From: a virus
Lineage: Duplodnaviria > Caudoviricetes
Length of the DNA stretch: 58,206 nucleotides
Virus record (IMG/VR): IMGVR_UViG_3300027668_000020
Location: 1-58,206 of that record
Direction: 5' to 3' (one strand)
Part shown: positions 2,772-44,255 of the stretch, piece by piece
Layout of the letters: each line of letters opens with the position of its first letter
How positions within the stretch are numbered: the first letter of the stretch is position 1
Made by a program: the position numbers and the translations under genes
Notes under the pieces: generated by a model
Told to the model about the DNA's origin: nothing
The model's input: only the letters and a program-made list of their open reading frames with translations
Databases searched by the model: none

Positions 2772-3068
2772 ATGAATATTTATTCAATTACAGACGCAGA
2801 CGGTGTCTGGGTAAACACCATTGTTTCGACACTTGAGTTTGCACAAGAAGAGTACCCTAATTGCACTTATGCTGTGCAAGAAAGCCCCGCTATTCCGGCA
2901 GAAGAAACTGAAAGGCAATGGCGGGATGAAGAACTAACGTCAACAGACACAGCTTCGCAAATACCAGACTGGCCGAATCGTGACAACATTCTAAGCTATA
3001 GGACTGCATTGCGTAACTGGCCTGCTAGTGATGACTTCCCTGCAACTCGGCCTACTTTAGGTAGTTAA
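2772..3068 (+). CDS. tail fibre assembly chaperone-like protein (copy 2)
   Basis: The last 23 aa are identical to those of 879..1175. Confidence 0.7.
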   Translation: MNIYSITDADGVWVNTIVSTLEFAQEEYPNCTYAVQESPAIPAEETERQWRDEELTSTDTASQIPDWPNRDNILSYRTALRNWPASDDFPATRPTLGS

Positions 3069-3805: not shown

Positions 3806-4183
3806 ATGTTAGCTCAATTGATCGGCCCAGTTTCTAACTTACTAGATAAATTCATTCTAGACAAAGATGTTAAGGCTAAGTTGTCTCACGAAATTAGCAC
3901 GATGGCAGAGCGCCATGCTCAAGAGTTAGCCAAGGGCCAGTTAGAAGTTAACAAGGTTGAGGCTGCACACAAGAACATGTTTGTTGCTGGCTGGCGACCT
4001 GCTATTGGCTGGATTTGCGGATTTGCTCTAATGTACTCTACTATCCTATCTCCTATTCTTGGCATCTGGTACACAGTTCCACCTGTCGATAGCTCCCTGC
4101 TTACTACTGTGCTGATGGGTATGCTAGGTCTAGGCGCTATGCGTACTGTGGAGAAGACCAAAGGCGTTCAGAGAGAAAAATGA
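3806..4183 (+). CDS. holin (GTA-type 3TM holin family)
   Basis: FVAGWRPAIGW motif, TM segments and LGLGAMRT.EK ending; adjacent to the endolysin. Confidence 0.8.
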   Translation: MLAQLIGPVSNLLDKFILDKDVKAKLSHEISTMAERHAQELAKGQLEVNKVEAAHKNMFVAGWRPAIGWICGFALMYSTILSPILGIWYTVPPVDSSLLTTVLMGMLGLGAMRTVEKTKGVQREK

Positions 4184-6587: not shown

Positions 6588-6907
6588 TGGCAAATACATA
6601 TATAAACGCGAAGGTCGATCTAACTGGAACTAGTGTAACTACGTTATATACCTGTGCAATTTTGACTACGGGCATAGTTAAATCCATATTAGTATCAGAA
6701 GACTCTGGCAACGCCGACACTATAACGGTAACCATAACTAACGGTTCTACTGTACACAGCCTATTTAATGTTAAACCCGTTGGCGCTAACGCTACAGTAG
6801 AGTTATTGACCGCTCCGTTGGTAGTGCAGACGGGAGAGATATTAAAAGTAACCGCAGCTACTGCAAATAGACTACATGTGGTAGCAAGCATACTAGAGAT
6901 TACGTAA
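6587..6907 (+). CDS. small beta-rich virion protein
   Basis: Coupled start at TAATG; MANTYINAK...ILEIT. Confidence 0.6.
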   Translation: MANTYINAKVDLTGTSVTTLYTCAILTTGIVKSILVSEDSGNADTITVTITNGSTVHSLFNVKPVGANATVELLTAPLVVQTGEILKVTAATANRLHVVASILEIT

Positions 6908-33089: not shown

Positions 33090-33092
33090 TGC

Positions 33093-33356
33093 CTACACCG
33101 TGCCAACCTTAAACGCTTCGCAAAACGCTTTTACCTCCTCCTTAGATACCCCTGTGTCCTTGGAGGTATATGCTACTGTGTTACTACCCTGCACAGGGTC
33201 AGTAAAGTATTCATATAATCGTCTCAAGTTCTCAGAACTAATTTCTATACCATTCAATACATTCATCGTTTGTTTCCTTTTTGGCTTGTTGAATACGTTG
33301 TCCCAGTTATCCCAGAACGTCTCGGCTGTTGGACGTTGGCGACTACCCTTACCCAT
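33093..33356 (-). CDS. hypothetical protein, possibly two fused small ORFs
   Basis: MGKGSRQRP..F..NWD.VF peptide, then an internal RBS + ATG at 33266. Confidence 0.5.
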   Translation of the reverse strand: MGKGSRQRPTAETFWDNWDNVFNKPKRKQTMNVLNGIEISSENLRRLYEYFTDPVQGSNTVAYTSKDTGVSKEEVKAFCEAFKVGTV

Positions 33357-33675
33357 TTTCAACTTCCTCTATTAACTTGTTTAGGTACCACTGCGCCTTC
33401 TTGAGGTCTTCTAACGGCTTACCCTTACGCTCGTACCTCCAAAGGTATTTCAGACATGCACCTTTACAGTACCCTTGGAATGCTTCGGCAGTCATGCTTG
33501 CTTCTATACCCTCAATACATTCGATGTTGCCATAGGTGTAGTGACTTGGGCTGTTAACATTGTCTTCCATGCTGCCCTTGAGTAAACCCCACGATTCTAG
33601 CCCTGTCTTTTCTATAGCGGGGGCGTCTTCTCGTAATCTATCCCAGTCTTGTGGTGTTGCGTCATTAATGCTCAT
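33349..33675 (-). CDS. DUF3310 family protein (T7 gp1.7-like nucleotide kinase)
   Basis: VNSPSHY..G.IECI...KYLWRY..KG...EDLKKA.WYL. Confidence 0.85.
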   Translation of the reverse strand: MSINDATPQDWDRLREDAPAIEKTGLESWGLLKGSMEDNVNSPSHYTYGNIECIEGIEASMTAEAFQGYCKGACLKYLWRYERKGKPLEDLKKAQWYLNKLIEEVENG

Positions 33676-33982
33676 CGTGCTGTCCTCTGAAGCCTGTTCC
33701 CGATACTAGGGCCACTGTGTCATGCATGTTGACTTCACTTACTACTAGCGCAATACCGCCAGCAGATGCAATGTCGGTTAGGTTTTTGTATTGCAGGGGG
33801 GTAGGTTTGTTCTTCCCTGCCTTACACTCAATGCCAAAGAACTTTCCCTCATGGCACCCTATGATGTCAGGTACTCCACTACGTCCGTATCCGCCTGTCA
33901 TGGGATAGAAGTAGTAAGCACCCATCTGTTTAAGGTAGGTCGTTACTACCTTCTTTACTCTTGCTTCGGGGGTTGAAGCCAT
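33665..33982 (-). CDS. VRR-NUC nuclease / Holliday junction resolvase-like
   Basis: TPE..VK, GVPDI, IECKA and LQ motifs. Start MASTPE has a GGAG RBS; the ORF-track start at 34105 is too long. Confidence 0.85.
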   Translation of the reverse strand: MASTPEARVKKVVTTYLKQMGAYYFYPMTGGYGRSGVPDIIGCHEGKFFGIECKAGKNKPTPLQYKNLTDIASAGGIALVVSEVNMHDTVALVSGTGFRGQHDEH

Positions 33983-34080
33983 TTTCTTTCTCCGTAAACT
34001 ATTATCTCGTAACAGTCGTATACCGTAGCTAGTAAGAAACTTATTATGAACGCGCCTAAGAATATCATTTCCCATTGCAT
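33955..34080 (-). CDS. 41-aa membrane peptide (not in ORF track)
   Basis: AGGAGG RBS; MQWEMIFLGAFIISFLLATVYD... Confidence 0.55.
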   Translation of the reverse strand: MQWEMIFLGAFIISFLLATVYDCYEIIVYGERKWLQPPKQE

Positions 34081-34205
34081 ATCTTCCTCCTAAGCCATAT
34101 AGCATTGAGTTCCTGTCTCTTAGTTTCCTTGGTAGCCTTCTTACCTGTCTTGTTCTTCCAAGCTACGTATTCTGCTTTAGGACATCTCTTCTCTCTCATA
34201 CTCAT
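34065..34205 (-). CDS. 46-aa basic peptide (not in ORF track)
   Basis: AGGAG RBS directly after the palindrome at 34217; MSMREKRCPKAEYVAWK... Confidence 0.55.
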   Translation of the reverse strand: MSMREKRCPKAEYVAWKNKTGKKATKETKRQELNAIWLRRKICNGK

Positions 34206-34209
34206 ACTC

Positions 34210-34503
34210 CTATTCTGTAGGGAATGTCCCTACAACCCAATACACGTTGGCGTCGATTCGCTTACCAACACCCTCTATCCAAGTCATTGGTGGGTCGTAC
34301 TCACATATACTTAATACACTTAGCCGTCCTTGTAACCATTTAGGAACAGCCTCATTAGTAATATAGCCCCCCTCGAAGGGGGAGTCAACACATTCCATAC
34401 CTATACATGTAACATTTAGTTCATTAGTATCAGTATGTACCTCAACGCGATACATAATGTCCTTTGGTGTACTATCGTAGCTAAACGTGTTATGCGTAGA
34501 CAT
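34210..34503 (-). CDS. early hypothetical protein
   Basis: 97 aa; shares a domain with the C-terminus of 34490..35458. Confidence 0.7.
   Translation of the reverse strand: MSTHNTFSYDSTPKDIMYRVEVHTDTNELNVTCIGMECVDSPFEGGYITNEAVPKWLQGRLSVLSICEYDPPMTWIEGVGKRIDANVYWVVGTFPTE
34217..34233. repeat. GTAGGGA-ATG-TCCCTAC palindrome, copy 1
   Basis: Read directly; lies in the last codons of 34210..34503, just before an RBS. Confidence 0.95.
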
Positions 34504-35458
34504 AATATACCGTGTCCATAGCGCGACGACCTACGGTATCAACAAAGTCACCCACATCACAGATAGATAGTACCGACAACTTACCTTCTATTTCTTCGGG
34601 TAGGGTTTCTTGCCCATACGTACGAGTACCATGCACCTTGTCCACCATTCCCGAATACTCTCTAATACTTCGGGCTATTGACGTAACATCAGTAAGGCGT
34701 ATAACGTCATACTTTACCTCCTCTCTACGTACGTAAACACGTACGGCATACAGGTCTATACAGGTAGTTCCTATCGCGTCTTGAATCTTTATAGCTTCCC
34801 TTACCTTGGTTACCTTGTCCTTGACATCATTACTTAGGAACGCGTGGTGAGTATCCACTAGGTGACAAAGCTCCTTCCACACCTCTGTCCGCTGTCCCTC
34901 TCTAATCCCGTCAGTAGTCAACCCCAGTTCATTAAGGTTAACCCTTATAACGGAACGGTTACTGGCTGCCTGTTTGTTGATAGTATAGAGGGTATCTTCA
35001 AAGGTAGCCGCCACCACATCTTCGTGGCTTATAGGTAGAAGGTATCTGTTGGCGTTGCGAGTAGCTGTGGTTATATTCCCCGTCACCTTTAGTCGGCGTT
35101 GCATCCTGTAGTCATCGTACTTGCCATTGGATATTTTGGGGGAGTATACGGCAAACTTTGAGTCTCCCTCACGCCCAACAGAGTAGTCTCCGTAACCTAC
35201 CCAACCCATGCAGAACACATCGGTGGGGTCATACACGTAGAACTTCCTAGCCGCCTCATGTCTACGAATAGTAGTAGCAAACTTACAGCCTCTAAAACCT
35301 ACACTCAGTAGATAGTCTAGTAAAAAAGACTCAAAACCACCTTGGCGGTTTGGGAACAGTGACCAATTAGGATCACGTAGGTCACTGTGGGTAAAAACAA
35401 CAAACTTTTCTTTATCTGTATCTAATTCCTGTACGCAGGGTAGGTCGCTATTCATCAT
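34490..35458 (-). CDS. early hypothetical protein
   Basis: 322 aa; GGAG RBS supplied by the repeat flank. Confidence 0.75.
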   Translation of the reverse strand: MMNSDLPCVQELDTDKEKFVVFTHSDLRDPNWSLFPNRQGGFESFLLDYLLSVGFRGCKFATTIRRHEAARKFYVYDPTDVFCMGWVGYGDYSVGREGDSKFAVYSPKISNGKYDDYRMQRRLKVTGNITTATRNANRYLLPISHEDVVAATFEDTLYTINKQAASNRSVIRVNLNELGLTTDGIREGQRTEVWKELCHLVDTHHAFLSNDVKDKVTKVREAIKIQDAIGTTCIDLYAVRVYVRREEVKYDVIRLTDVTSIARSIREYSGMVDKVHGTRTYGQETLPEEIEGKLSVLSICDVGDFVDTVGRRAMDTVYYVYA

Positions 35459-35462
35459 ATTT

Positions 35463-35489
35463 CTCCGAGTTGGTAGGGAATGTCCCTAC
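35463..35489 (-). repeat. palindrome copy 2 with CTCCGAGTTG flank
   Basis: CTCCGAGTTG GTAGGGA-ATG-TCCCTAC fills almost all of the 33-bp intergenic gap. Confidence 0.95.
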
Positions 35490-35491
35490 AG

Positions 35492-36379
35492 TTACTTTGT
35501 TTTGTACTCTTGGTACGAGTTAGTGAACGTACCCTTATGATTTACCCACGCATTGAACTTGGCGCGGAACTTCTTAGGGTCACTTGTTAGGCTGACGTTA
35601 ATCACCGAATTTATAGCCATACTATGCCAGTACCTGTTACCCATGCTATCTGCTAGTTCACATAGGAACGCGTGTACCATAGTGGTACGTTGCTCGTGTT
35701 GCTCTTCTACTAACATGTCTCTGAACGTGTCCCCACCCATACGACCAGCCTCCATCCTAGCCTCGCGGTTAGACTCCCAGTTCATAGTGCCCTCAAGTAT
35801 GGGGGTCATAGTCCATGCCCAGTGTAGGTATTCATCGATAGCTTTTTTGTACGGTGCCTTGGCTTCTTTGTTAACACGTACACGTGTGACAGGTATAGGG
35901 TGTTCATCACTGGACAGTGTCCAAGGTGCGTAATGTCTGTGCCCCGCTACAGAACTGTTAGTCCTTCCTGCGGTAAACACTACAGGCTTGCGCTCATCCT
36001 TGGGTAGGTAGTAGCGGTTGCTTACTAGATGAAGTATGTACTGCTTGCCGTTGTCTACTATGAACCGCATACCCATAGGCATACACCGCTCAAGGAACGC
36101 GTACCTACCATTGTGCGCGTAGTCACCTGTCTCGTTACGAAACCATACTGTGTCAGTGTTATCGTCATTACGAACCCAGACCACTGCGGCAGTGTGCGAC
36201 TGTTCATGCTCCCCGCGATCTGATAACACGTACTGGTGTGGTGATACCTTGACGATACATTCCCACTTACGTCTGCGATCGCCGAGAGGCACTATGTTAG
36301 TACCCCTGATTGGTTTGGTGTTGTTGTACAAATGTTCCACGTGAGTGAAACTGTCTAGCCCATAATCATACATAGCCAT
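35492..36379 (-). CDS. early hypothetical protein
   Basis: 295 aa; KPIRG...PLG.RR N-terminus; coupled to the upstream stop. Confidence 0.75.
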   Translation of the reverse strand: MAMYDYGLDSFTHVEHLYNNTKPIRGTNIVPLGDRRRKWECIVKVSPHQYVLSDRGEHEQSHTAAVVWVRNDDNTDTVWFRNETGDYAHNGRYAFLERCMPMGMRFIVDNGKQYILHLVSNRYYLPKDERKPVVFTAGRTNSSVAGHRHYAPWTLSSDEHPIPVTRVRVNKEAKAPYKKAIDEYLHWAWTMTPILEGTMNWESNREARMEAGRMGGDTFRDMLVEEQHEQRTTMVHAFLCELADSMGNRYWHSMAINSVINVSLTSDPKKFRAKFNAWVNHKGTFTNSYQEYKTK

Positions 36380-37629
36380 TACAAGTCCCTCGATTTAATA
36401 TGTACACGTTTACCTACAGTGGGGTTAGCGTTCTCGTTGTCCAAGATAGTCCACAGTACAGGGAACTTCCAGTCTCCCCAGCCCCCGTACAGGTACCCGT
36501 CAGTCAGTACGATAGCGGCTTGTGGACTAATACCGTTCTTAGCCATGTACTCAGTAAGGCACGTAACGTCTGTGCCTCCACCTCCACGCGGCTTGGTAGA
36601 CTTGACTAGCTGCGCCATCTCGTTCATCTCATAGGTTTCATCCCCTACCACAGAACTACCCCAGTACAGTACTCGTACCTTGCTGACCTTGACTGTTGCA
36701 AGTATCTCTGCGACTGCGGATAACATCAAAGTAAGCTCCCGTTGCCCTATCGAACCTGATGTATCGGGGGCAAATACTAGCTCATCCACCCGTTCGCTAT
36801 ACCTAGAGGGCATATACACGTCCTGCCCTAGCAACCTGCGGTTGGGTCTAGCCCATGTAGAGTAATCGTTGCCCCTACACGTTGACTGTACAAAGTCACG
36901 TAGTACATCACGCCAGTTGACCTTGGTCTTGAGTAGCTCATCTATGTCACGCGGTACATCGGCACCCATCTTACCAGCCGCCATTGCTCCTTGACGTATA
37001 GCTTCATCGATGTCACGTTCCAAGTCCTTGGCTTCTTCTTCCGATAGCTCCTGTGCCCCCTCCCAGTCGTGTTCGTCGAAGCCTGTTCCCTCGTCAGTAG
37101 GGGATTCCCTACCATCACCGTCACCACCACCACCATCACCATCGTCCTCATCAGCAATCCTTCGCATGTCTTCGTCTAGGTCACGCGCATACTTGAGTAT
37201 GTTGAACACCTGTGCGGTGTCCATGTCCCTATACTTCTCATCGACCAGCGCACCTTCCGGTAGTACCGCAAACCCGTCCGTGTTGGCATCCCGTATCTTT
37301 ATGTTGATCACGTAGTCCATAGCCATGTTAGCCAGAGCAGCGTCTTCTTTCCATAGATGCTCCCATGTTCGTAGGTGGCGGTACAGCTTGTGGTAGTTCT
37401 CATGTAACACCACCCCACGTAATTCGGCATCGGTAAGGCCAGCCACAAACTTACGCCCGTACTTCTCATCCCTCCCGTTAGTACACGCTGTGGGTAAGTT
37501 GTCTTCGATGACCTTATCTCCGATCATTAGTACTGCTGCTAGGGCGGTGTACCTAGGCTCCCCTAGTATCTTAACGACTGCCTTGGTCAGTCGCTGTTCT
37601 TCTGTCAGTCCATCACTGTTTAGTAACAT
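36379..37629 (-). CDS. DUF2201-type metallopeptidase + vWA domain protein
   Basis: TACTNG, HENYH (HExxH), N.AMDYVIN, acidic linker, MIDAS DTSGS, GGGTD and LTDG. AGGAG RBS favours ATG 37629. Confidence 0.88.
   Translation of the reverse strand: MLLNSDGLTEEQRLTKAVVKILGEPRYTALAAVLMIGDKVIEDNLPTACTNGRDEKYGRKFVAGLTDAELRGVVLHENYHKLYRHLRTWEHLWKEDAALANMAMDYVINIKIRDANTDGFAVLPEGALVDEKYRDMDTAQVFNILKYARDLDEDMRRIADEDDGDGGGGDGDGRESPTDEGTGFDEHDWEGAQELSEEEAKDLERDIDEAIRQGAMAAGKMGADVPRDIDELLKTKVNWRDVLRDFVQSTCRGNDYSTWARPNRRLLGQDVYMPSRYSERVDELVFAPDTSGSIGQRELTLMLSAVAEILATVKVSKVRVLYWGSSVVGDETYEMNEMAQLVKSTKPRGGGGTDVTCLTEYMAKNGISPQAAIVLTDGYLYGGWGDWKFPVLWTILDNENANPTVGKRVHIKSRDL
37097..37112. repeat. palindrome copy 3 (16-bp variant), intragenic
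   Basis: GTAGGGGATTCCCTAC; 37097-37116 is the exact reverse complement of 41800-41819. Confidence 0.85.
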
Positions 37630-37768
37630 TGCATTTCTCCTGTGTAGGGACATTCCCTACCATCTTGTGTACGTCTACCAACAACAGCCTAGCTTGCTTG
37701 CGCTCTCGTTTGGTAATGAGGCGGGTAAGGTAACCCCGCGTTGATCGTGTCTGGCGACTGTCTCTCAT
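37613..37768 (-). CDS. 51-aa basic peptide (not in ORF track)
   Basis: ATGA overlap with the AAA stop; MRDSRQTRSTRGYLTRL...VGNVPTQEK... Confidence 0.45.
   Translation of the reverse strand: MRDSRQTRSTRGYLTRLITKRERKQARLLLVDVHKMVGNVPTQEKCNVTKQ
37644..37660. repeat. palindrome copy 4
   Basis: GTAGGGA-CAT-TCCCTAC, 2-3 nt from the vWA gene RBS. Confidence 0.95.
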
Positions 37769-38862
37769 TTCTTGTCACTTGAGAACATGTACCCGTTATT
37801 CCTACACCAATCAGTAAACCTGCTGTTACTCATAACAGCGTTGCGGTGAGGATACTTGGCGTGTCGCGCACCATGTACAAACAGACCTTGCGCTTCTGTA
37901 TCTAGACGTGCCATGTATATCATCCAAGCATCTACCCATTCGCGGTTCATAGATTGTAGGGATCGATACACCACCATACATACAGTGGCGTCTTTCGAGG
38001 GTATTGTGGCGTTGTGAGGGTCATCCTTAATAGATTGTAGACTAGGTAAGTCATCACCGAGCTTTACGAATGCCATAAGAGCCTTGGCACCGGACGCACC
38101 AATAGTACCTATGAGGGCATTGGTCAGTAGGTCATCATCTAAATGCTCACGCTCCAACAGAATATCCGATGCCGCGTGTAGGGATCGAGGCGTTACAAAC
38201 TGACTACCGGATGGTGCCTGTGGGTGGTATATGTACGGGTTGTCATCAGGGTTCTGCACATCAGAGAATGATTGAAACAGTGCAGGGTTGTCCTTAGCCC
38301 AGCCACACAGTACAGGGTCTAGCCCATTGGGTATCGCAAAGTTAGCCAGCCATTCCATGTTAGCTTGCTTCTTGAGTCGTAACCTAGTGACGCGGTTACA
38401 GGCATGGGCAGGTAGTGTGTCACCTAGATTCTCTGCACCTAGGTTAGAGGTAGCGAACACTATAGACTCAGGGTGTAGCGTGTAATCACCTATCTTACGC
38501 TCCAACATCAGGCGCAGTAGCCCATTGAGTATCTCGCGCTCTGCCTTACCGACCTCATCGATCATCAGTATCAGCTTGACGCCTAGGTGTACACCCAGTT
38601 CTTCGTTGGTCAGGTACTTGACGTAGCCTGTGCCATCGTCCATATGTTGTATCTTAGGTATAGTTATATCGCCCGGAACCTTGGTCGTACAGTCAAAGTA
38701 ACAGAGTATATGATCAGGATGCTTCTCACCTATAGCTGCTAGTGCGGACGATTTGCCCTCACCCATGTCACCTTCCATCACTACGGTGCGCTTGTGCCCT
38801 ATCCTTGAGATTAGAGTCACGGCTTGGGGTATAGTCGATGCGTATATATGTTCTGCGTTCAT
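37765..38862 (-). CDS. MoxR-like AAA+ ATPase
   Basis: Walker A GDMGEGKS, Walker B LMIDE, ATSN, NR and TPRS motifs; adjacent to the vWA gene. Confidence 0.88.
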   Translation of the reverse strand: MNAEHIYASTIPQAVTLISRIGHKRTVVMEGDMGEGKSSALAAIGEKHPDHILCYFDCTTKVPGDITIPKIQHMDDGTGYVKYLTNEELGVHLGVKLILMIDEVGKAEREILNGLLRLMLERKIGDYTLHPESIVFATSNLGAENLGDTLPAHACNRVTRLRLKKQANMEWLANFAIPNGLDPVLCGWAKDNPALFQSFSDVQNPDDNPYIYHPQAPSGSQFVTPRSLHAASDILLEREHLDDDLLTNALIGTIGASGAKALMAFVKLGDDLPSLQSIKDDPHNATIPSKDATVCMVVYRSLQSMNREWVDAWMIYMARLDTEAQGLFVHGARHAKYPHRNAVMSNSRFTDWCRNNGYMFSSDKK

Positions 38863-38869
38863 GTTATTT

Positions 38870-38896
38870 CTCCGAGTTGGTAGGGGATGTCCCTAC
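38870..38896 (-). repeat. palindrome copy 5 with CTCCGAGTTG flank
   Basis: CTCCGAGTTG GTAGGGG-ATG-TCCCTAC fills the 36-bp intergenic gap. Confidence 0.95.
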
Positions 38897-38898
38897 GG

Positions 38899-39837
38899 TT
38901 ATAGGTCAAGTGAAGGTAAGTTAGCGATAACGTCATCTATAGACGCTTTGGTTTCGGCACGCAGGGTGGGGGATGTTCTTAGTCCGTCTGCGGTAACACC
39001 ACGAACAGAGTCTTCTAGACTCCTGCGTATCGCCTCCTGCTTACTGTCTCCTGTCACGTTGCACGACTTTAGTAGGTCGATAACATCTAGCACGTTGTCT
39101 ACCAGACTACCCTTGAACACTAGGGCACCTGTCGAAGGCGATACGTACTCACCTGCTTCTGGTTCACGTAGTCGCTCAGACATATTGGACACAGCTACGT
39201 GTACACGTTTCCACATGCTGTTCATAGCCCCGTCAAATCTGGCGTTGTGGTACTTGTTCATGTGGTCTTTGAGTACCTGCGTCTGCTCGTTACCCACGCT
39301 AATGCGGAAGTCGTTTGGGTCAGAGATAGAGAAGTATGCTATCCGAAACTCAAACTTGTCTGCTAGGGACTCAGTAGTCGGGTAGTCCGCTGCGTTGTGC
39401 AAGTCACCCAGTCGTGCATTCTCTTGAGCGCGATCCCAGTCGTACGCTCCAAGGAACTCTCCTTTCAATCGGTAGAACTCCCCCTGCATATCGGTCATCA
39501 ACTCGTTGTACTTGAAATACGTTTCAGTAGGTAACATACGATGCCCCATGTCATTCCAAGGTAGGGTCATTGCGTAGTGTAGGTTGCGTGCGTTACTCGC
39601 TAGAGTATGAAGTGCCTTGAGAGAAGCACTATCACCCAGTAACACCTTACCGACTGTCGCGGTATCCTTGTTAGCGTTGTTGTCCACTACCACCTTGGCG
39701 GATGCCGCCTTGTCTTTCTTGGTATTTCTGCCCCACTTGCTGCACGTATGCTCTACTAGCATGGCAGACGAACTGATTGAGGGAAGGCTTATCTCTGGTG
39801 CTTCGTTTAGGTTTGATGCTTCGTTTAAGTTAGTCAT
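38899..39837 (-). CDS. early helical protein (possibly DUF3150-like)
   Basis: TLPW...G.R.LP and DYP motifs; upstream of the AAA-vWA pair. GGAG RBS favours ATG 39837. Confidence 0.65.
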   Translation of the reverse strand: MTNLNEASNLNEAPEISLPSISSSAMLVEHTCSKWGRNTKKDKAASAKVVVDNNANKDTATVGKVLLGDSASLKALHTLASNARNLHYAMTLPWNDMGHRMLPTETYFKYNELMTDMQGEFYRLKGEFLGAYDWDRAQENARLGDLHNAADYPTTESLADKFEFRIAYFSISDPNDFRISVGNEQTQVLKDHMNKYHNARFDGAMNSMWKRVHVAVSNMSERLREPEAGEYVSPSTGALVFKGSLVDNVLDVIDLLKSCNVTGDSKQEAIRRSLEDSVRGVTADGLRTSPTLRAETKASIDDVIANLPSLDL

Positions 39838-39871
39838 GTTATTGCTCCGAGTTGGTAGGGACATTCCCTAC
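39831..39871 (-). repeat. palindrome copy 6 within a 41-bp repeat
   Basis: Matches 40230-40270 at 40 of 41 positions, including the RBS and start codon. Confidence 0.95.
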
Positions 39872-40030
39872 GATAGATGACGCGGCTGCGTCCGTTGATA
39901 TAAGGTATGCACATAGGCAGACCATAATGATTGCGCCAACAGTCAACCCGCGAAGGTAACTTCTTTGGCACTGCTTGTTTAGCAGGTAGGCATCTGCGGC
40001 ATTGATAGCCTCACGTTGTAGGTCGTCCAT
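39839..40030 (-). CDS. 63-aa early membrane protein
   Basis: TM segment GLTVGAIIMVCLCAYLI; the C-terminus is encoded by the repeat. Confidence 0.6.
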   Translation of the reverse strand: MDDLQREAINAADAYLLNKQCQRSYLRGLTVGAIIMVCLCAYLISTDAAASSIVGNVPTNSEQ

Positions 40031-40236
40031 TACTCACCCCCTAGTTCGACTATCATGCCGATCATCTGCTCGCGGTTAGTAGGGCATTCCCTACGGACTA
40101 GCCTATCGCGCCAGCTATCTCTGCCTTGTACTTCTCGCTCCTTGCGGTCAAACATATCTTTATGAAGCTCAAACATTTCACGTAGTTGTTCATCTATGCC
40201 TTGCGCTACAGTCTCTTGCTCTGTTGGTATAGTCAT
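40030..40236 (-). CDS. early hypothetical protein
   Basis: First gene after the strong promoter; GGAG RBS favours ATG 40236. Confidence 0.6.
   Translation of the reverse strand: MTIPTEQETVAQGIDEQLREMFELHKDMFDRKEREVQGRDSWRDRLVRRECPTNREQMIGMIVELGGE
40079..40094. repeat. palindrome copy 7 (degenerate, intragenic)
   Basis: GTAGGG-CAT-TCCCTAC with a degenerate flank TGCTCGCGGTTA. Confidence 0.85.
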
Positions 40237-40270
40237 GGTATTGCTCCGAGTTGGTAGGGACATTCCCTAC
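40230..40270 (-). repeat. palindrome copy 8 within the 41-bp repeat
   Basis: Core at 40254-40270. Confidence 0.95.
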
Positions 40271-40317
40271 AGTAAAAGTAAAGGGACACAGCGTCCCCGC
40301 CCCGTAATGGGATTACC

Positions 40318-40346
40318 AGTATAACACACCTAGCTAAACATGTCAA
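40318..40346 (-). promoter_or_regulatory. strong sigma70 early promoter
   Basis: TTGACA-N17-TATACT with an extended -10 TG. Confidence 0.85.
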
Positions 40347-40425
40347 GTTGTCTACTGTTATACCCAAACGTGACTAACGGTGTATTGTTACACATTGTTA
40401 CACATTGTTACGTAGGGTAGGCTTG

Positions 40426-40438
40426 TAAGTCCTTGATA
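40426..40438 (-). promoter_or_regulatory. IHF binding site
   Basis: TATCAAGGACTTA matches the WATCAANNNNTTR consensus exactly. Confidence 0.55.
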
Positions 40439-40646
40439 ACGCTCGAATGTTACAATGTTACGTTTTTGAGGGAAATATAGGGGGAAATAATTCGCTCTAA
40501 CCCCCTCGAACGAATTTGTCACAGTGTGTAGCTTCGCCAATAAGACCCTATATATATTCAAAAAAATGTCACAAAGTAATGTATATTAAAAAGACACATA
40601 ATTAATCACTTTTAGCTAGGTTTTTTTGGGCATAAGGCTTCACTGC

Positions 40647-40683
40647 CCGACACGATCCGACACGATCCGACACGTTCCGATAC
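40647..40683 (+). repeat. 10-bp tandem repeat CCGACACGAT (~3.7 copies)
   Basis: Read directly. Confidence 0.9.
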
Positions 40684-40752
40684 TGTGACATTTTTTTGTA
40701 ACATTGCATTACAAACACGTAACATTGCGGGGTAAAATGTAACATTGCTCTG

Positions 40753-40769
40753 GTAGGGACATTCCCTAC
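40753..40769. repeat. palindrome copy 9
   Basis: GTAGGGA-CAT-TCCCTAC at the right edge of the origin-like region, with no gene start next to it. Confidence 0.95.
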
Positions 40770-40776
40770 GTCTGAC

Positions 40777-40847
40777 GCTCAACGCTAACAAGGAACTGGT
40801 CTTGGATGGGCGTCTGCCTAGATGCTCAACGCTAACAAGGAACTGGT
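40777..40847 (+). repeat. 24-bp direct repeat GCTCAACGCTAACAAGGAACTGGT x2
   Basis: Copies at 40777-40800 and 40824-40847. Confidence 0.9.
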
Positions 40848-40871
40848 ATCCGATTCACTTTTTTACAGGCG

Positions 40872-40894
40872 AAAAAAAGCCCCTCGAAAGGGGC
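40872..40894 (-). terminator. intrinsic terminator
   Basis: GCCCCT-TTCG-AGGGGC followed by T7, just after the stop at 40900. Confidence 0.85.
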
Positions 40895-40899
40895 GGTGA

Positions 40900-41100
40900 T
40901 TATTGCCAGCTTAGAATGTGATCGATGATAGACTTAGGCGTGCCTAGCTTAGACTGTGCTAGATGGCGCTCTAGTCTAAGGTCAATCAATATGCTGTCAA
41001 TGGTATCGCTAGCGCGGCCAGACAATGTGAGATCGTTCTGGCATGCGTGAAGCGCGGTGATGGTATCCTCAATAAGTTTTATTTGTGTGGAAGGTTTCAT
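40900..41100 (-). CDS. immediate-early hypothetical protein
   Basis: 66 aa, GGAG RBS, terminator downstream. Confidence 0.65.
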   Translation of the reverse strand: MKPSTQIKLIEDTITALHACQNDLTLSGRASDTIDSILIDLRLERHLAQSKLGTPKSIIDHILSWQ

Positions 41101-41152
41101 AATATGTTACTCCAGTAGTGGGCCATCCGTGGCCCTGTTAGGTTAGGTTAGG

Positions 41153-41776
41153 TTAGTGTTTGGGTTCGGTAGGCTCGGCGGCCATTGCCGCTATCACGAG
41201 ACCTAGCGCATGGTATGAAGGGCCGCCCTCTTTTAGCTCCAGTTCATTGGCTATGTTCTCGAACTGTTTACCTAGCGTAGCGTAGGTAGTGCGTAGTCTA
41301 GTAAGCGCCTTTGTATCGTCGGCAATGTCCTTCTCATCGTCCGACATGTCCTCGCGTTTGGCTTTGTCCAGCCGCTTACCAACCGCGTTACGGGTATCCT
41401 TTAACCTAGATGCCGCCTGTTTTTTGGCGTTCATCACCGCGACCCGTTCGGGATTGGGTGAACCATCTGGCAGCTTGGTTGGCATGGTTGCAGGGTCTAT
41501 AGCGGCTAGCGCCCTAACCTCATCCGGTAGCATGGCGTCGTGCACCACTAGCATATCGGCGTATAGTTCGGGACTGGCTAGCGATCCCTCGGTGGTATTG
41601 CTTACCAGATATAGTAAGGTATTCTCGGGATAGGCTTTGCACAGTAGAGAGCATAACCTATCTAGGGAGGTGTCTTTATTGATGGCCGATTCAGTGCATA
41701 CAATATCGGCGGTAGAATATGCCAGCATAGCGTTGGCGACGGTCTTAGATAGTACGTTAAGAGTTAATGTAGTCAT
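41153..41776 (-). CDS. immediate-early hypothetical protein
   Basis: 207 aa helical protein, AGGA RBS; first gene of the - arm. Confidence 0.7.
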   Translation of the reverse strand: MTTLTLNVLSKTVANAMLAYSTADIVCTESAINKDTSLDRLCSLLCKAYPENTLLYLVSNTTEGSLASPELYADMLVVHDAMLPDEVRALAAIDPATMPTKLPDGSPNPERVAVMNAKKQAASRLKDTRNAVGKRLDKAKREDMSDDEKDIADDTKALTRLRTTYATLGKQFENIANELELKEGGPSYHALGLVIAAMAAEPTEPKH

Positions 41777-41803
41777 TGTAATTATTCCTATTAATGATAG
41801 ATG

Positions 41804-41819
41804 GTAGGGAATCCCCTAC
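41804..41819. repeat. palindrome copy 10 (16-bp variant)
   Basis: GTAGGGAATCCCCTAC in the leader of 41153..41776. Confidence 0.85.
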
Positions 41820-41856
41820 ATACACAGAGCAGCACCATTGCCGCTTTGATGGGTCT

Positions 41857-41865
41857 AGTATAACA
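41857..41865 (-). promoter_or_regulatory. extended -10 promoter
   Basis: TGTTATACT, the same 9-mer as in the 40318 promoter; poor -35. Confidence 0.5.
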
Positions 41866-42103
41866 GGTTTAGGTAGGTATGACGGTTCCCAGACCCTACC
41901 CGCCCCCCACCGCCCGCTTGCTATATATGGGACTCCACGCTTGTATGTATTACTAATCCACACGAATATTTTACTTTTTCTCGGATTCTGACCCCCACCC
42001 CCCTATTTGAGGCCGTACCCCCCATCCTTTTTTAAAATCCCTTGTAGAAAAAATTTTTTTCTGGTATATAGGTGTCTTCGGTTTAACAACCTGCGATTAC
42101 AAT

Positions 42104-42712
42104 ATGACTTTATCCCTCGATCCAGAGTTAGGTGTCCCGTTATCTGATGGGCCACGTAAGATAGATTTAACAAAGCGTACGAAAGCTGCGGCTAATACCG
42201 CGCTAGAATTGGCAGAGCACGGCCTAGATTTATTCCCTAACAAGGATGACAAGGACGTAGCCTCTAAGTTAGCTGCTTCCTATGCTGCTGACCCCGCCAA
42301 AACCTCTAAAACTGCAAGTGCTGCTCGGATGTCTACCCTGACTCCGGCTTCGATAGTACTTACAGACAAGATTCTTACCGAGTTTGGACGTTCCGTAGTA
42401 GAGAACTCCATGCACATTCGGCACCTAGTGACTAACAAGCTGATCCTAGAGACAGAAAACCCTGATCCTCGCACCCGAATCCGTGCTTTGGAGCTATTAG
42501 GTAAGATTTCTGACGTGGGGTTGTTTGCAGAGAAGTCAGAAATAACAATCACCCACCAATCTACAGACGATTTGAAGACTAAACTGCGTAGGAAACTAGA
42601 AAAGCTAGTCCCTGTGGAGGAAGAAGCCGAGGATGCAGTGTTCCTAGACGGGGAAGCACTGGATTTAGAGGAAGAATTAGGGTTGGGTGGTGAGTTCTAT
42701 GACGACGACTGA
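42104..42712 (+). CDS. terS: terminase small subunit (putative)
   Basis: Directly upstream of TerL; RIRALELLGKISDVGLF motif. Confidence 0.65.
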   Translation: MTLSLDPELGVPLSDGPRKIDLTKRTKAAANTALELAEHGLDLFPNKDDKDVASKLAASYAADPAKTSKTASAARMSTLTPASIVLTDKILTEFGRSVVENSMHIRHLVTNKLILETENPDPRTRIRALELLGKISDVGLFAEKSEITITHQSTDDLKTKLRRKLEKLVPVEEEAEDAVFLDGEALDLEEELGLGGEFYDDD

Positions 42713-44255
42713 GGCCGTTCCCGACTTTTCCGAGGAAGACATCCAGAAAATGTTGGATAACTTAGACTCTTTCTCTGAAGATGAGGTCATGGAGATAGAT
42801 AGGTTGGTAGATGAGCTATCGACTAGAAAACAGAACCAGCTATCCTACGACGACTTGATAGAATTTTGCAAGGCCATGATGCCTGACTTCATTGTGGGCA
42901 AGCACCACCGCATTTTGGCCGACCTACTCATGGAAATTGAGAGTGGAGTGAAGGATAGAGCCTGCGTAAACATCCCCCCACGTCACGGCAAGTCCCAATT
43001 GGTGTCTATTTTCTTCCCAGCGTGGTATTTAGGGCGTAATCCCAACAAGAAAGTGATGATGGTGTCGCACACAACCGACTTAGCGGTAGATTTTGGCCGT
43101 AAAGTACGTAATTTGATCTCTACACCCGAATACCTAGCCATATTTCCCACTGTAAAGCTAGCAAGTGACTCCAAATCAGCGGGGCGTTGGAATACTAGTG
43201 TAGGTGGAGAGTATTATGCGTGTGGTGTTGGTTCGGCACTAGCAGGTCGTGGTGCTGATCTACTGCTTGTAGACGACCCCCATTCAGAGCAAGACGTGAT
43301 TAACGGTAACTTCGCCGTATTTGAGAAGGCTTACGAGTGGTATACGTTCGGTGCTCGTACACGTCTGATGCCGGGGGGTAGTGTAGCTATTATCCAGACT
43401 AGATGGCACATGGACGACCTAACAGGGCGTGTTGTTAAGGACATGGCCCAGAACGAGCGATCTGACCAGTTTGAGGTCATAGAGTTCCCCGCTATACTAG
43501 AATTTGAGGACGAAGACGGGGAAATAGAAGAAAAACCTCTGTGGCCTGAGTTCTTCGACCTTGAGGCTCTGTTACGTACCAAGGCGTCTATGCCTACGTT
43601 CCAGTGGAATGCCCAGTACCAGCAACAGCCCACCGCCGAAGAAGCCTCTATAGTAAAAAGAGAGTGGTGGAAGTGGTGGGAGAAGGAGAATCCTCCCGCG
43701 TGTGAGTACATAATCATGTCACTCGATGCTGCGGCAGAAAAGCACAACCGAGCGGACTATACTGCACTGACTACTTGGGGAGTGTTTTTCAATGAGGAAG
43801 AAAACGCGTATAATATTATATTGCTTAATAGTATTAAGCAGCGTATAGAGTTCCATGAACTCAAAGAACTAGCGATGCAAGAGTACGCAGACTGGGAGCC
43901 AGACTCGTTTATTGTGGAGAAAAAGAGTTCTGGTGTGGCGCTATATCAAGAAATGAGACGTATGGGGCTACCTGTGTCTGAATATACTCCTCATAGGGGG
44001 TCTGGTGATAAACTAGCGCGTTTGAACGCGGTATCTGATATTGTAGCGTCTGGATTATGTTGGGTTCCGCAAACTCGATGGGCTGAAGAAGTCGTAGAAG
44101 AGATCGCGGGATTCCCGTTTATGAGCAACGATGACTTGGTGGACTCGACTGTAATGGCGTTAATGCGCTTCAGACAGGGCGGGTTTATAAGGTTACCTAC
44201 CGATGAGCCGGAAGAACAGAAGTACTTCAAGCGGCGAGCAACTGGGTATTATTAA
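42699..44255 (+). CDS. terL: terminase large subunit
   Basis: Walker A PPRHGKS, Walker B LLVDDP, QTRW, YQQQP, nuclease SLD and DDLVD motifs. Confidence 0.95.
   Translation: MTTTEAVPDFSEEDIQKMLDNLDSFSEDEVMEIDRLVDELSTRKQNQLSYDDLIEFCKAMMPDFIVGKHHRILADLLMEIESGVKDRACVNIPPRHGKSQLVSIFFPAWYLGRNPNKKVMMVSHTTDLAVDFGRKVRNLISTPEYLAIFPTVKLASDSKSAGRWNTSVGGEYYACGVGSALAGRGADLLLVDDPHSEQDVINGNFAVFEKAYEWYTFGARTRLMPGGSVAIIQTRWHMDDLTGRVVKDMAQNERSDQFEVIEFPAILEFEDEDGEIEEKPLWPEFFDLEALLRTKASMPTFQWNAQYQQQPTAEEASIVKREWWKWWEKENPPACEYIIMSLDAAAEKHNRADYTALTTWGVFFNEEENAYNIILLNSIKQRIEFHELKELAMQEYADWEPDSFIVEKKSSGVALYQEMRRMGLPVSEYTPHRGSGDKLARLNAVSDIVASGLCWVPQTRWAEEVVEEIAGFPFMSNDDLVDSTVMALMRFRQGGFIRLPTDEPEEQKYFKRRATGYY

Follow-up and report, generated by a model that had tools for sequence, protein, structure and literature searches.

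The early region of the phage genome studied here contains a short palindrome that returns ten times within a few kilobases, which raises the question of what these copies are and by what they are read. The window, that is the whole stretch of DNA that was analysed, is a whole virus record of 58,206 bp from a marine phage, which CheckV rates as 94% complete. When arms of 6 nt and a centre of 3-5 nt were permitted, GTAGGG-N3-5-CCCTAC was found exactly 10 times over 7.6 kb, at all ten positions that had been listed in a first-pass annotation of this DNA, and every copy was located within 34217-41819. There were none in the remaining 50 kb, and none is expected by chance. The claim that the element is absent elsewhere in the genome is borne out, and it holds for the assembled sequence because the window is the whole virus record. 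The exact pattern GTAGGGANNNTCCCTAC gave 6 matches in the window and 0 in 100 dinucleotide shuffles; when up to 2 mismatches were tolerated 7 matches were obtained, with a mean of 0.22 and a maximum of 2 in the shuffles. Half-sites alone are frequent in the window (GTAGGG 29 times, CCCTAC 22 times), and the other palindromes with 6-nt arms were each single-copy among those listed. Seven copies follow the 17-nt scheme GTAGGGA-NNN-TCCCTAC, with a mismatch in the copy at 38880, and three are 16-mers (41804, 40079 and 37097). In two Tara metagenome contigs, which share 91% and 97% identity with the window, identical palindromes stand at matching places, the imperfect copies included, which implies that the palindromes are not an assembly artefact. 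At the place of palindrome 1 the 91% identical contig (L306) has a full 17-mer.

The genes of the early block lie on the minus strand, and all 10 copies are inside this leftward-transcribed block. Read on the minus strand, 8 of the 10 have a start codon 11-48 nt beyond their end, where the earlier remark had been that six lie just 5' of an RBS; the exceptions are the copy at 40753, in a non-coding region, and that at 37097, inside the vWA gene (Table 1). The common flank CAACTCGGAG that had been noticed at four copies was recovered directly 3' of those at 35473, 38880, 39855 and 40254, in the arrangement CAACTCGGAG-N7-ATG, and palindrome and RBS together form a unit of 30-44 nt common to these four. 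The other copies have different RBS contexts. On the sense strand the window copies are not followed by a T run, nor are they preceded by a conserved 5' flank.

Table 1. Palindromes and neighbouring features of the early region (positions in the window).
Feature	Position	Strand	Description
Candidate promoter P1 for X	41857..41865	-	Extended -10 TGTTATACT, then 6 nt, then conserved leader start ATCAAAG
Palindrome 1	41804..41819	-	16-mer, GTAGGGGATTCCCTAC on sense strand; leader of first early gene X; 27 nt from its end to ATG 41776; centre at ~+39 from predicted P1 start
First early gene X	41153..41776	-	207 aa; proposed sequence-specific reader
Terminator-like hairpin	40879..40894	-	Intrinsic type with T run; end of short first operon
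~30-bp motif, two copies	40774..40854	-	(G)ATACCAGTT-N10-GCGTTGAGC; family D18
Palindrome 2	40753..40769	-	17-mer within 640-bp non-coding region
Candidate sigma-70 promoter P2	40318..40346	-	TTGACA-17-TATACT, 11/12 consensus matches, TG before -10
Palindrome 3	40254..40270	-	17-mer, then CAACTCGGAG; 17 nt to ATG 40236; ~+49 from P2
Palindrome 4	40079..40094	-	16-mer; 3' end of small ORF starting 40236; 48 nt to ATG 40030; also kept in L307
Palindrome 5	39855..39871	-	17-mer, then CAACTCGGAG; 17 nt to DUF3150 gene start 39837
Palindrome 6	38880..38896	-	17-mer, one mismatch at innermost pair, then CAACTCGGAG; 17 nt to AAA ATPase gene start 38862; identical variant in L307
Palindrome 7	37644..37660	-	17-mer; 14 nt to likely vWA gene start 37629
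Palindrome 8	37097..37112	-	16-mer inside vWA gene, in frame; Gly/Asp-rich linker just before HDWEGA motif
Palindrome 9	35473..35489	-	17-mer, then CAACTCGGAG; 14 nt to 322-aa gene start 35458
Palindrome 10	34217..34233	-	17-mer; last codons of 97-aa gene; 11 nt to ATG 34205

The short first operon consists of X and a 66-aa gene, and an equivalent of the terminator-like hairpin at its end is present in L017. P1 is a candidate promoter of X read from the sequence; its layout (-10, 5-8 nt, ATCAA) was found in 9 further loci, of which L046 is a false anchor. Palindrome 2 is located directly 3' of the second copy of the ~30-bp motif and is followed by three GCAATGTTAC repeats. This motif is kept across palindrome types and was found in 36 of 81 sequences; in relatives the palindrome ends 7-8 nt before its ACCAGTT in 32 of 43 cases. 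Two of the copies have one of the two best promoter-like sites (40346-40318 and ~41865-41857) 30-50 nt upstream, and none was seen within or beside the other eight. Matches to the sigma-70 consensus were not enriched in the early region (7 seen vs 12.9 expected from shuffles). The vWA start given by the ORF finder, 37653, is an ATG in the centre of palindrome 7, and at the vWA linker position equivalent to that of palindrome 8 the loci L028 and L020-22 have a palindrome of their own.

The palindrome system is not confined to one phage. Conservation in relatives had been set beforehand as a test in the first-pass annotation, and 74 of 80 related IMG/VR loci were found to carry their own multi-copy palindrome of like geometry, mostly of 17 nt. 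Its sequence is lineage-specific, with 13 types among the related loci; GGTAGTCCRYGGACTACC and GTTAGGGAATTCCCTAAC are examples of other types, which would be non-cognate for the X of the window, and several types start with GTAG. Across the types the arms measure 6-8 bp and the centre 1-5 nt. A length of 17 nt was found for 180 of 193 GTTAGTG copies and for all 51 TTATGCG copies, and in L007 18-mers account for 5 of the 12 copies. Each related locus has 5-18 copies; four relatives that are 94-100% complete have 8, 8, 5 and 7, each set being confined to 6.5-10.6 kb. The sites are orthologous across the 13 types (in the non-coding region as well as ahead of X and of the DUF3150, ATPase, vWA and 322-aa genes), and the gene order around them is kept. 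An SD with a start codon was present at most 70 nt away on the sense strand for 220 of 425 distinct copies, 153 of these at 10-24 nt, compared with 16 on the opposite strand and 122 of 521 random positions in the controls. Frequently a one-sided CAA or AAA is seen 3' of the palindrome. Palindromes of relatives often come directly after terminators, and in L072 a strong terminator precedes one of them.

Natural swaps connect the palindrome type with gene X. In three independent pairs of loci (L072/L044, L031/L010 and L028/L021), the DNA of which is 89-98% identical over 14-20 kb, the palindromes differ between the partners at every site. At 6 of 7 paired sites in L072/L044 the near-identity of the flanks reaches the palindrome edge or stops a few bases short of it. 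What does not align in the swap pairs is a single segment composed of gene X and its own palindrome, and X is the sole non-homologous gene within the spans compared in the three pairs. An identity test of X was made on 73 locus pairs with an ATPase at least 90% identical: X was 57.7-100% identical in the 63 pairs of the same palindrome type and 5.6-19.9% identical in the 10 pairs of different type, ranges that do not overlap. When the palindrome type was placed on the tree of X (41 loci) it changed 12 times, which is the minimum for 13 types, and on the ATPase tree of the identical 41 loci it changed 14 times. Related phages exchange X and the sites together, as a set resembling lock and key. 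The first-pass annotation had named the HTH at 27319 as a candidate binder, which found no support; X (41153-41776) takes its place as the sole non-homologous gene in the spans compared, the L072/L044 alignment ending short of the counterpart of the HTH gene. The other candidates named, the uncharacterised early proteins, do cover X, which had not been singled out among them. We propose that X is the sequence-specific reader of the palindromes, and on comparison of the sequences this is likely since it is the sole non-homologous gene in the swaps and its family has no known domain, invariant residue or recognised fold. A host factor as determinant of the palindrome type is unlikely, because genomes so similar over the compared regions, which exclude the tail genes, differ in this type. 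It is also conceivable that the specificity determinant lies beyond the 14-21 kb over which the swap pairs were compared.

For X a helical N-terminal domain (residues 11-91) and a long helical hairpin (109-183) were predicted, with a pLDDT of the model of 88.7. No match was found in Pfam or the PDB, an HTH or other DNA-binding domain of Pfam was absent, and X belongs to no transposase or recombinase family in Pfam or PHROGs. Fold searches with the model yielded generic helical matches only. The family comprises 599 clusters at 50% identity, and its members are all ~160-240 aa among the 150 listed. Weak matches to phrog_12501, 'HTH DNA binding protein', occurred in 2 of 31 X homologues (L019 residues 70-170, E 7.9e-4; L014, E 3.8e-3), which speaks for DNA as the target. 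The alignment of 32 homologues (A1) contained no invariant residue and hence no catalytic motif. X looks like a binder and not like an enzyme.

The sites are non-random, keep their position across relatives and switch their lineage-specific sequence together with gene X. The first-pass annotation had considered a regulon of the early genes based on an operator or an RNA hairpin, and sites that are position-kept and change in concert with one phage gene speak for a regulon of this kind. We give an even chance to the reading that the ten palindromes form an operator-like regulon in which double-stranded DNA would be read by a symmetric binder. From the sequences we infer that X binds the sites, that its target is DNA rather than RNA, and in which direction it regulates. 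The sites are proposed to be the cis half and the 207-aa X the trans half of a phage-specific regulon. X would be produced first, from the host-type promoter P1, and would bind as a symmetric dimer to 17-bp sites made of two 7-bp half-sites and a 3-bp centre. The sites bound would be one in the control region of X itself, a second in non-coding DNA and one at nearly every cistron boundary of the early and middle operons. In an operator-like manner X might control its own expression and slow down or time transcription through the early region, for which the mycobacteriophage stoperator repressors and lambda Cro are the nearest models.

The main alternative, which we consider less likely, is that X instead binds RNA hairpins with a 7-bp stem and a 3-nt loop in the early transcripts, directly 5' of the ribosome sites, and in this way controls translation, the stability or processing of the mRNA, or read-through at terminators. 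Lambda N/boxB and the translational operators of the coat-protein or RegA type act on RNA in this manner. The restriction of the window copies to the leftward-transcribed block, the 11-48 nt that separate 8 of the 10 from a start codon and, in relatives, the peak of this distance at 10-24 nt on the sense strand only are all consistent with it. Folding predicts a hairpin of ~-9.5 kcal/mol that leaves the SD free, the loop length is off by one in some copies, and terminators are present in the operons (40894-40879 in the window and the strong one before a palindrome in L072). In addition, palindrome 1 of the window lies between P1 and gene X, which recalls the layout of lambda with nutL before N. 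The duplex reading is less at ease with some of this: the placement tied to translation starts and the one-sided CAA or AAA both fit an RNA-level role, the half-site spacing varies and a hairpin tolerates a change of length more easily than a rigid dimer, and it is not obvious why a lytic phage should obstruct each of its early genes with a roadblock. Nevertheless, the stems are conserved and the loops free or flipped, which is the opposite of what known RNA-hairpin readers require. The asymmetric centre is found in both complementary forms (ATG 4 and CAT 2, C 11 and G 3, AC 8 and GT 4, ACT 7 and AGT 5), as expected of a twofold-symmetric duplex site, and the overall length is fixed within a palindrome type. 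The 77 mismatched pairs comprise 11 sense-strand wobbles, 9 antisense wobbles and 57 others, so G-U is not in excess. Hybrid half-sites that break the stem, for example GTTAGTG...CCCTAAC, persist at one site in several loci. Predicted anchors of the X promoter were obtained in 10 of 40 loci, one of them false, and in 6 loci of 4 types palindrome 1 precedes the predicted start, at -62 to -72 (and -103), which places it upstream of the transcript. Furthermore, 2-3 copies per genome are in the non-coding region, 7-8 nt from the 30-bp DNA motif, and some are inside coding sequence, distant from any start.

The sharp swaps might also be taken to mean that the palindromes serve as joints for recombination or are small mobile elements (PeSL-, REP/RAYT- or attC-like) by which early genes become exchangeable, or which are copied round the genome by X. 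Precise replacement of the palindrome between near-identical genomes, with flanks identical to the edge, has a cut-and-paste look, and gene X moves with its own palindrome. REPs begin with GTAG, as several types do, and four window copies share the palindrome and RBS unit. Sharp edges may, however, also result from branch migration stalling at heterology during homologous recombination, and a kept gene order with orthologous sites across 13 types does not suit a mobile element. Among 183 distinct indel or replacement junctions of >60 bp in the early regions, 36 had an edge at most 25 nt from a palindrome, where position alone would account for an estimated ~13%. The exchangeable cassettes of the first-pass annotation, with breakpoints of gene gain and loss at the element when relatives are aligned, found no support in these counts and the kept gene order. 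X itself lacks a catalytic motif and is outside the transposase and recombinase families. As to the remark in the first-pass annotation that no recombinase or RAYT is evident, no integrase or RAYT was detected when minus-strand genes were scanned by Pfam and PHROGs and plus-strand genes by PHROGs. In bacterial genomes the matches listed were single and scattered, with no clustered copies among them. On balance this explanation is improbable. Very improbable is a role as N4-like hairpin or other compact promoters for an unrecognised phage RNA polymerase, with X as specificity factor. The stem-loop dimensions do match those of N4 early promoters, a C-A step follows the element so that a short SD-containing leader would result, palindromes often come directly after terminators, and the giant virion ORFs of 1996 and 2054 aa are largely without annotation. 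Yet neither Pfam and PHROGs nor a search of PDB sequences with the two giant ORFs found an RNA polymerase; the 2054-aa protein is polyvalent and LPD39/DarB-like, and the 1996-aa ORF had no match in Pfam, PHROGs or the PDB sequence search. Good candidate sigma-70-type promoters stand ahead of the operons, the symmetric element is found in both orientations, and copies exist inside genes. It is equally hard to believe that the palindromes are passive structural hairpins which stabilise or insulate the mRNA, with no dedicated reader and with an identity due to duplication or gene conversion. Moderately stable hairpins at cistron boundaries would fit, as would the extended flanks common to four copies, which suggest duplication. 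This does not account for one stem per genome vs another at every site in 97%-identical relatives, nor for a switch that coincides with one gene, and the 61-nt contexts fold no better than shuffles (z -0.49 to -1.21).

The parallels drawn in the first-pass annotation can be sorted accordingly: mycobacteriophage stoperators and SAS/ESAS are the closest known systems, whereas N4, REP and PeSL elements each fail at least one defining feature, provisionally so for N4. N4-type hairpin promoters are used by a phage-encoded virion RNA polymerase that recognises specific loop bases, in one orientation and at few copies at the genome end. Here the loop is variable or flipped and ten copies include two inside genes, a comparison that is only provisional because the N4 features were taken from general knowledge. 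REP/RAYT systems have many copies in the host chromosome and go with an HUH/Y1 transposase whose catalytic residues are conserved; X is without an invariant residue or Pfam family, and a transposase was absent from the genome in the Pfam/PHROGs scan. Lambda N/nut has two sites per genome, at which the hairpin loop and a neighbouring boxA, both conserved, are recognised; found here were instead a free or flipped centre, no conserved 5' flank and 10 sites. Lambda Cro/CI operators are 17-bp near-twofold-symmetric sites with a less constrained centre, and in lambdoid phages the reader is the first gene of an early operon and is exchanged together with its sites. The operator-like regulon proposed here resembles them in its 17-bp symmetric sites, its first-early-gene reader and the joint exchange in similar phages, but X is ~200 aa with no HTH detected in Pfam. 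Lambdoid operators are clustered at two promoters within one contiguous immunity cassette, whereas the present sites alternate with conserved genes along 7-10 kb, and each of them has to change in a swap.

PeSLs of T4-type phages are likewise repeated stem-loop elements between early genes. They are described as a strong sigma-70 promoter with a terminator stem-loop that marks insertion/deletion breakpoints (PMC2839356); the present element includes neither a promoter nor a T run, and 36/183 junctions are near it. The SAS of Cluster K is a 13-bp asymmetric SD-containing repeat a few bp before the starts of some non-structural genes; an inverted repeat, with a consensus that differs between subclusters, stands ahead of about half of these repeats, and the ESAS is a pair of imperfect 17-bp inverted repeats separated by a spacer of 4-13 bp (PMC3203893). 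Common to both systems are sites kept at orthologous genes and an inverted-repeat sequence that differs between lineages, and the repeated motif by RBS and start codons (PMC3203893) has a partial counterpart in the window. The window arms, by contrast, are 7 bp round a 3-bp centre, and the constant part is the palindrome and not a 13-mer, the RBS flank CAACTCGGAG being present in 4/10 copies only; where that report describes the repeats, no cognate gene is named and no function assigned (PMC3203893). The stoperators of Cluster A (L5, Bxb1) are described as 13-bp asymmetric sites, mostly in one orientation (PMC6550527), and their reader in these temperate phages is a monomeric repressor with two domains (PMC6550527, PMC9283540). 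The reader of such a system is an HTH immunity repressor and blocks elongation. Sites here are twofold symmetric, of 16-17 bp, in both orientations and limited to the early region, and their partner gene, first of the early genes and from an un-annotated helical family, belongs to an apparently lytic phage, no integrase having been found by Pfam/PHROGs. As in Cluster A, many short sites are dispersed in transcription units beyond promoters, and a lineage-specific motif covaries with one phage protein (PMC6550527, PMC9283540). Since the motif of each lineage covaries with one phage protein, the related phages fall into specificity types.

The virus record (58,206 bp) is complete or nearly so (CheckV 94%), and its gene blocks and some neighbouring features are listed in the table. 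Ten copies of a GTAGGGA-nnn-TCCCTAC palindrome had been reported by the first-pass annotation between positions 34217 and 41819. When the arms were set to 6 nt and the centre to 3-5 nt, a scan confirmed this observation, in place and in exact number, and no second recurring 6-nt-arm palindrome was among those listed for the window. The motif GTAGGGANNNTCCCTAC gave six exact matches in the window versus 0 in shuffles, and with at most two mismatches seven times (shuffle mean 0.22). Seven copies are 17-mers and three are 16-mers. On the minus (coding) strand a start codon lies 11-48 nt beyond the palindrome end in eight copies; the remaining two are found in a 640-bp non-coding region and, in frame, within the vWA gene. 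The shared flank described for four copies was borne out as well, as CAACTCGGAG-N7-ATG follows four of them. Two contigs from Tara, which share 91% and 97% identity with the window, have the same copies, the imperfect ones among them. An RBS context, ACTCGGAG(A/C)AAT, was seen at 35459-35472, at 38866-38879 and at other places in the window, and also at 4066-4090 of the related locus L073. Because the palindromes that it follows in L073 are of a different type (GTCTACA), it is a translation-start context conserved in this phage group and does not belong to a palindrome unit. The window contained no Rfam families or tRNAs, and megablast gave no match to cultured phages for 33000-43000. In IMG/VR the exact palindrome of the window gave, in the 80 listed loci out of 100 stretches, single scattered matches only, apart from two very large contigs in this set that were matched twice.

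Features of the virus record and their positions
Feature	Position	Strand	Remarks
Tail, lysis and giant virion genes	1-22729	plus	
Replication and early genes	22779 to about 41963	minus	
Terminase, portal and capsid genes	from 42007	plus	
Non-coding region, 640 bp	40237-40878	minus	partly AT-rich; between first-operon terminator and candidate promoter P2
Two giant virion-module ORFs	6907-12897 and 16565-22729	plus	
Duplicated 98-aa genes resembling tail-fibre-assembly genes	879-1175 and 2772-3068		tail module
Three tandem 90-nt coding repeats	1235-1504		tail module
33-nt coding repeats inside the 1996-aa ORF	11472-11667		tail module

A search of IMG/VR with the AAA ATPase encoded among the palindromes of the window yielded 96 relatives, of which 80 loci (48-59% identity) were kept. 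The palindrome of the window occurred in multiple copies in none of the 80. A recurrent palindrome of their own was found in 74 of these loci, and 13 types could be distinguished; L053, L056, L071, L074, L080 and L081 had no assignable type. The commonest type is GTTAGTG-NNN-CACTAAC, and others are TGTAGTGA-N-TCACTACA, GGTAGTCC-NN-GGACTACC, GTTAGGGA-W-TCCCTAAC, GTGTAACA-S-TGTTACAC and TTATGCG-NNN-CGCATAA. Judged by comparison of these loci, the element itself is conserved, but its sequence is specific to each lineage. A length of 17 nt was measured (with 7-nt arms) in 400 of 521 copies across the loci, and within types in 180 of 193 GTTAGTG and in all 51 TTATGCG copies. The palindromes occupy orthologous places: ahead of the first early gene, inside the non-coding region, and ahead of the genes for DUF3150, the ATPase, vWA and the 322-aa product; the copy inside the vWA gene sits at the same linker in three types. 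Every copy lies inside 6.5-10.6 kb in the four relatives that are 94-100% complete, which have genomes of 58-66 kb.

The palindrome types were not all monophyletic on the ATPase tree. This exposed three pairs of loci (L072/L044, L031/L010 and L028/L021) that have near-identical ATPases and different types. Whole-locus alignment showed these pairs to be 89-98% identical over 14-20 kb, and the sole stretch that did not align, 0.7-1.1 kb in length, consisted of the first early gene and the palindrome before it. Of the seven paired sites in L072/L044, six were replaced within near-identical flanks that extend to the palindrome edge or end a few bases short of it, and the seventh, at the first early gene, sits in the non-homologous segment. 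At the protein level every real gene but this one had a close counterpart in the span shared by L072/L044 and by L031/L010. Its counterpart in the window lies at 41153-41776 and encodes 207 aa; the product is called X here. The gene for X could be identified in the window and in 45 of the 80 related loci (46 sequences in all); L060 (wrong ORF), L052 (124-aa fragment) and L008 (garbled frame) were excluded from the pair comparison and the trees, and two untyped loci from the trees as well. The comparison covered 73 locus pairs with ATPases at least 90% identical. The first-gene identity was 57.7-100% in the 63 pairs of the same type versus 5.6-19.9% in the 10 pairs of different type. The first-gene tree required 12 type changes, the lowest number possible, versus 14 for the ATPase tree, both trees being of the same 41 loci. 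That the palindromes form a regulon over the early genes, as had been proposed, is therefore supported, and since the types switch with the first early gene in the three pairs, this regulon can be tied to X. A host factor is unlikely to set the palindrome type in place of X, because the type differs between genomes that are near-identical across all compared regions (these regions do not extend to the tail genes).

The proposal that the palindromes are recombination joints that make the early genes exchangeable cassettes was not supported, as breakpoints of related loci lie near a palindrome at only 36 of 183 junctions. Cassettes of the PeSL type, which by definition comprise a promoter and a terminator (PMC2839356), were not supported either, the elements of the window having neither. 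REP elements mobilized by a RAYT are improbable: no transposase was found in the genome by Pfam and PHROGs, and X lacks catalytic residues. Bacterial genome contigs scanned for the palindrome gave, among the matches listed, single matches only, with no host copies seen among them. Against N4-type promoters it was noted that no polymerase was found by Pfam, PHROGs or PDB sequence searches, that the element is symmetric and flippable and that copies occur inside genes.

The X proteins form, across all types, a single alignable family 165-215 aa in length, and apart from the start methionine none of its residues is invariant. This favours a binder over an enzyme. No Pfam family was detected above noise in its members, and the family profile did not match PDB sequences (E at least 0.29 in profile searches). 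Its 56 database homologues are all unnamed, and a full profile search enlarged the family to 599 clusters at 50% identity. Relatives of X were found neither among phages by tblastn nor, for the X of the window, in IMG/VR. The AlphaFold model, a confident one (pLDDT 88.7), predicts a small domain of helices and, after it, a helical hairpin of 35 residues. With this model Foldseek returned nothing at E <= 0.001 from PDB or BFVD, the wide VIA search with the full model retrieved generic helical hairpins only (Z <= 7.7), and a protein atlas search gave unnamed viral clusters only (best score 0.89). When the N-terminal 105 aa were modelled alone (pLDDT 69.7) the best fold match, at Z 6.1, was at noise level. 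Two X homologues, one at E 7.9e-4 over 100 residues and the other at E 3.8e-3, weakly matched a PHROG annotated as HTH DNA-binding protein, which is a lead only.

Whether X would read its sites as duplex DNA or as RNA was weighed on the features of the palindromes, and the balance tips modestly towards duplex DNA. A symmetric X that would recognize the duplex is somewhat favoured by the length, which is fixed within a type. The palindrome centre is free in the GTTAGTG type and is otherwise constrained, but relative to the gene both complementary forms occur (ATG 4 and CAT 2 in the window; C 11 and G 3, AC 8 and GT 4, ACT 7 and AGT 5), which was counted for duplex DNA and a symmetric binder. 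Among 77 mismatched pairs 11 were sense-strand wobbles, 9 antisense wobbles and 57 other; this lack of a G-U preference at unpaired positions was counted likewise, as was the persistence of stem-breaking hybrid sites (for example GTTAGTG...CCCTAAC) at one position in several loci. The promoter of X was predicted from an extended -10, 5-8 nt and a conserved ATCAA leader, an anchor found in 10 of 40 loci, including a false one inside a palindrome (L046). In six loci, which belong to four types, the first palindrome is found at -62 to -72 or -103 relative to this promoter, outside the predicted transcript and thus counted for DNA, and in three loci including the window it is at +31 to +48. Furthermore, the palindrome end precedes a conserved 30-bp DNA motif by 7-8 nt in 32 of 43 cases in the non-coding region, a fixed spacing that also speaks for the duplex. 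RNA as the target of X, to which somewhat less weight is given, would be in agreement with the SD and start codon within 70 nt (mostly 10-24 nt) on the sense strand in 220 of 425 distinct copies, versus 16 on the opposite strand and 122 of 521 random positions. In addition, CAA is found on one side only, after the element, the centre length is off by one base in some copies, and the predicted hairpin is stable and leaves the SD free.

The 640-bp non-coding region looks like an origin or a regulatory hub. It holds GCAATGTTAC three times at 40748-40698, three copies of ATCGTGTCGG-like repeats and GTAACAATGT three times at about 40412-40385, and repeats of AATGTTC or AATGTTAC are seen at the equivalent place in relatives. 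The motif of about 30 bp, (G)ATACCAGTT-N10-GCG(T/C)TGAGC(C)T, is located at 40774-40854 and is conserved across all palindrome types. Of 81 sequences 36 have it, with 1-3 copies each, and as a rule it follows a palindrome at a distance of 7-8 nt; it does not fit a sigma-70 consensus and had no Rfam match. The divergent intergenic region between terminase and early genes (about 41890-42030) contains the G-runs GGGGGGTGGGGGTC and GG(T)GGGGG..GGTAGGGT together with a conserved GATTAGTAATACATA box, at the same place as in L010, L017, L028, L044, L069 and others; the G-runs might be a G-quadruplex or a regulatory element. The predicted X mRNA start, the conserved ATCAA(A/G)(G/A)CG..CAAT, is found at 41841-41850 and in the leaders of L054, L065, L069 and L082, and in several relatives it pairs with a downstream ..TTGAT to give a 5'-terminal hairpin. 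As to the giant ORFs, the one of 2054 aa has an LPD39 domain and a match to a DarB-like polyvalent protein, and the one of 1996 aa has no match in PHROGs, Pfam or PDB sequences.

Good candidate promoters of host type are found ahead of two operons, the first one and that of DUF3150, ATPase and vWA. The palindromes are placed downstream of these promoters and then at cistron boundaries, which implies that they are not sigma-70 promoters themselves. The most economical model is that X would be made first, would bind its own control region and would then bind the dispersed sites, by which early and middle transcription would be tuned or shut down. Specificity has diversified between phages that are nearly identical, and this suggests that co-infecting relatives are in conflict or incompatible. 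A more far-reaching reading, which we regard as doubtful, is that X and the palindromes constitute a self-contained specificity module that is swapped by marine lytic phages, and that each swap is followed by the rewriting of all 7-10 dispersed sites, exact to the base pair, with the intervening genes remaining 97-100% identical. Such rewriting could be an active process of copy-paste or gene conversion by which the sites are made uniform and matched to the resident X. Alternatively, incompatibility selection could be so strong that numerous very small divergent islands persist in spite of rampant recombination. If the module reading is true, natural populations of lytic phages would be partitioned by palindrome type, the types acting as 'mating' or immunity types, and X would represent a novel class of nucleic-acid binders that are sequence-specific and whose specificity is easily retargeted.

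An analogous palindrome, GGTTCAG-N-CTGAACC, was found in the cultured freshwater Synechococcus phage MinM2 (OQ594354.1; TerL 41.6% and DUF3150 28% identical to those of the window). Its 33 copies at <=1 mismatch are spread across the whole 65-kb genome and are densest in the early region; they stand directly before RBSs, most of them between a stop codon and the next RBS, and the record annotation has no feature for them. No relation was detectable between the first early protein of MinM2 and X. The records of the Planktothrix phages Pag-Yong1 and Pra-JY27 are identical to that of MinM2 in length and match statistics; no mention of Pag-Yong1 was found in the literature, and Pra-JY27 was likewise absent among the matches listed. 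The Pelagibacter phage HTVC027P (TerL 46.7% identical) had no comparable palindrome in its first 50 kb, so that the system is not present in all TerL relatives. The MinM2/Pag-Yong1 group offers an experimental handle for studies of transcription and binding. A published description of the palindrome system was not found in a literature search of sources outside subscription journals.

The analysis links an abundant and entirely unannotated family of phage proteins to a short, defined candidate target with 13 natural specificity variants, a natural series from which the retargeting of nucleic-acid recognition could be learned. Near-identical phages that differ at every site and in one gene show the evolution of a dispersed regulon in uncultured marine phages, and the swapped pairs hint at incompatibility types among lytic phages. 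Diversification of this kind is seen in immunity types. The proposed action of X resembles that of Cro in lambda. The nearest described architecture is that of the SAS/ESAS of Cluster K mycobacteriophages, the function of which is likewise open (PMC3203893). X and its dispersed sites can further be likened to the stoperator repressors of Cluster A mycobacteriophages (PMC6550527, PMC9283540).
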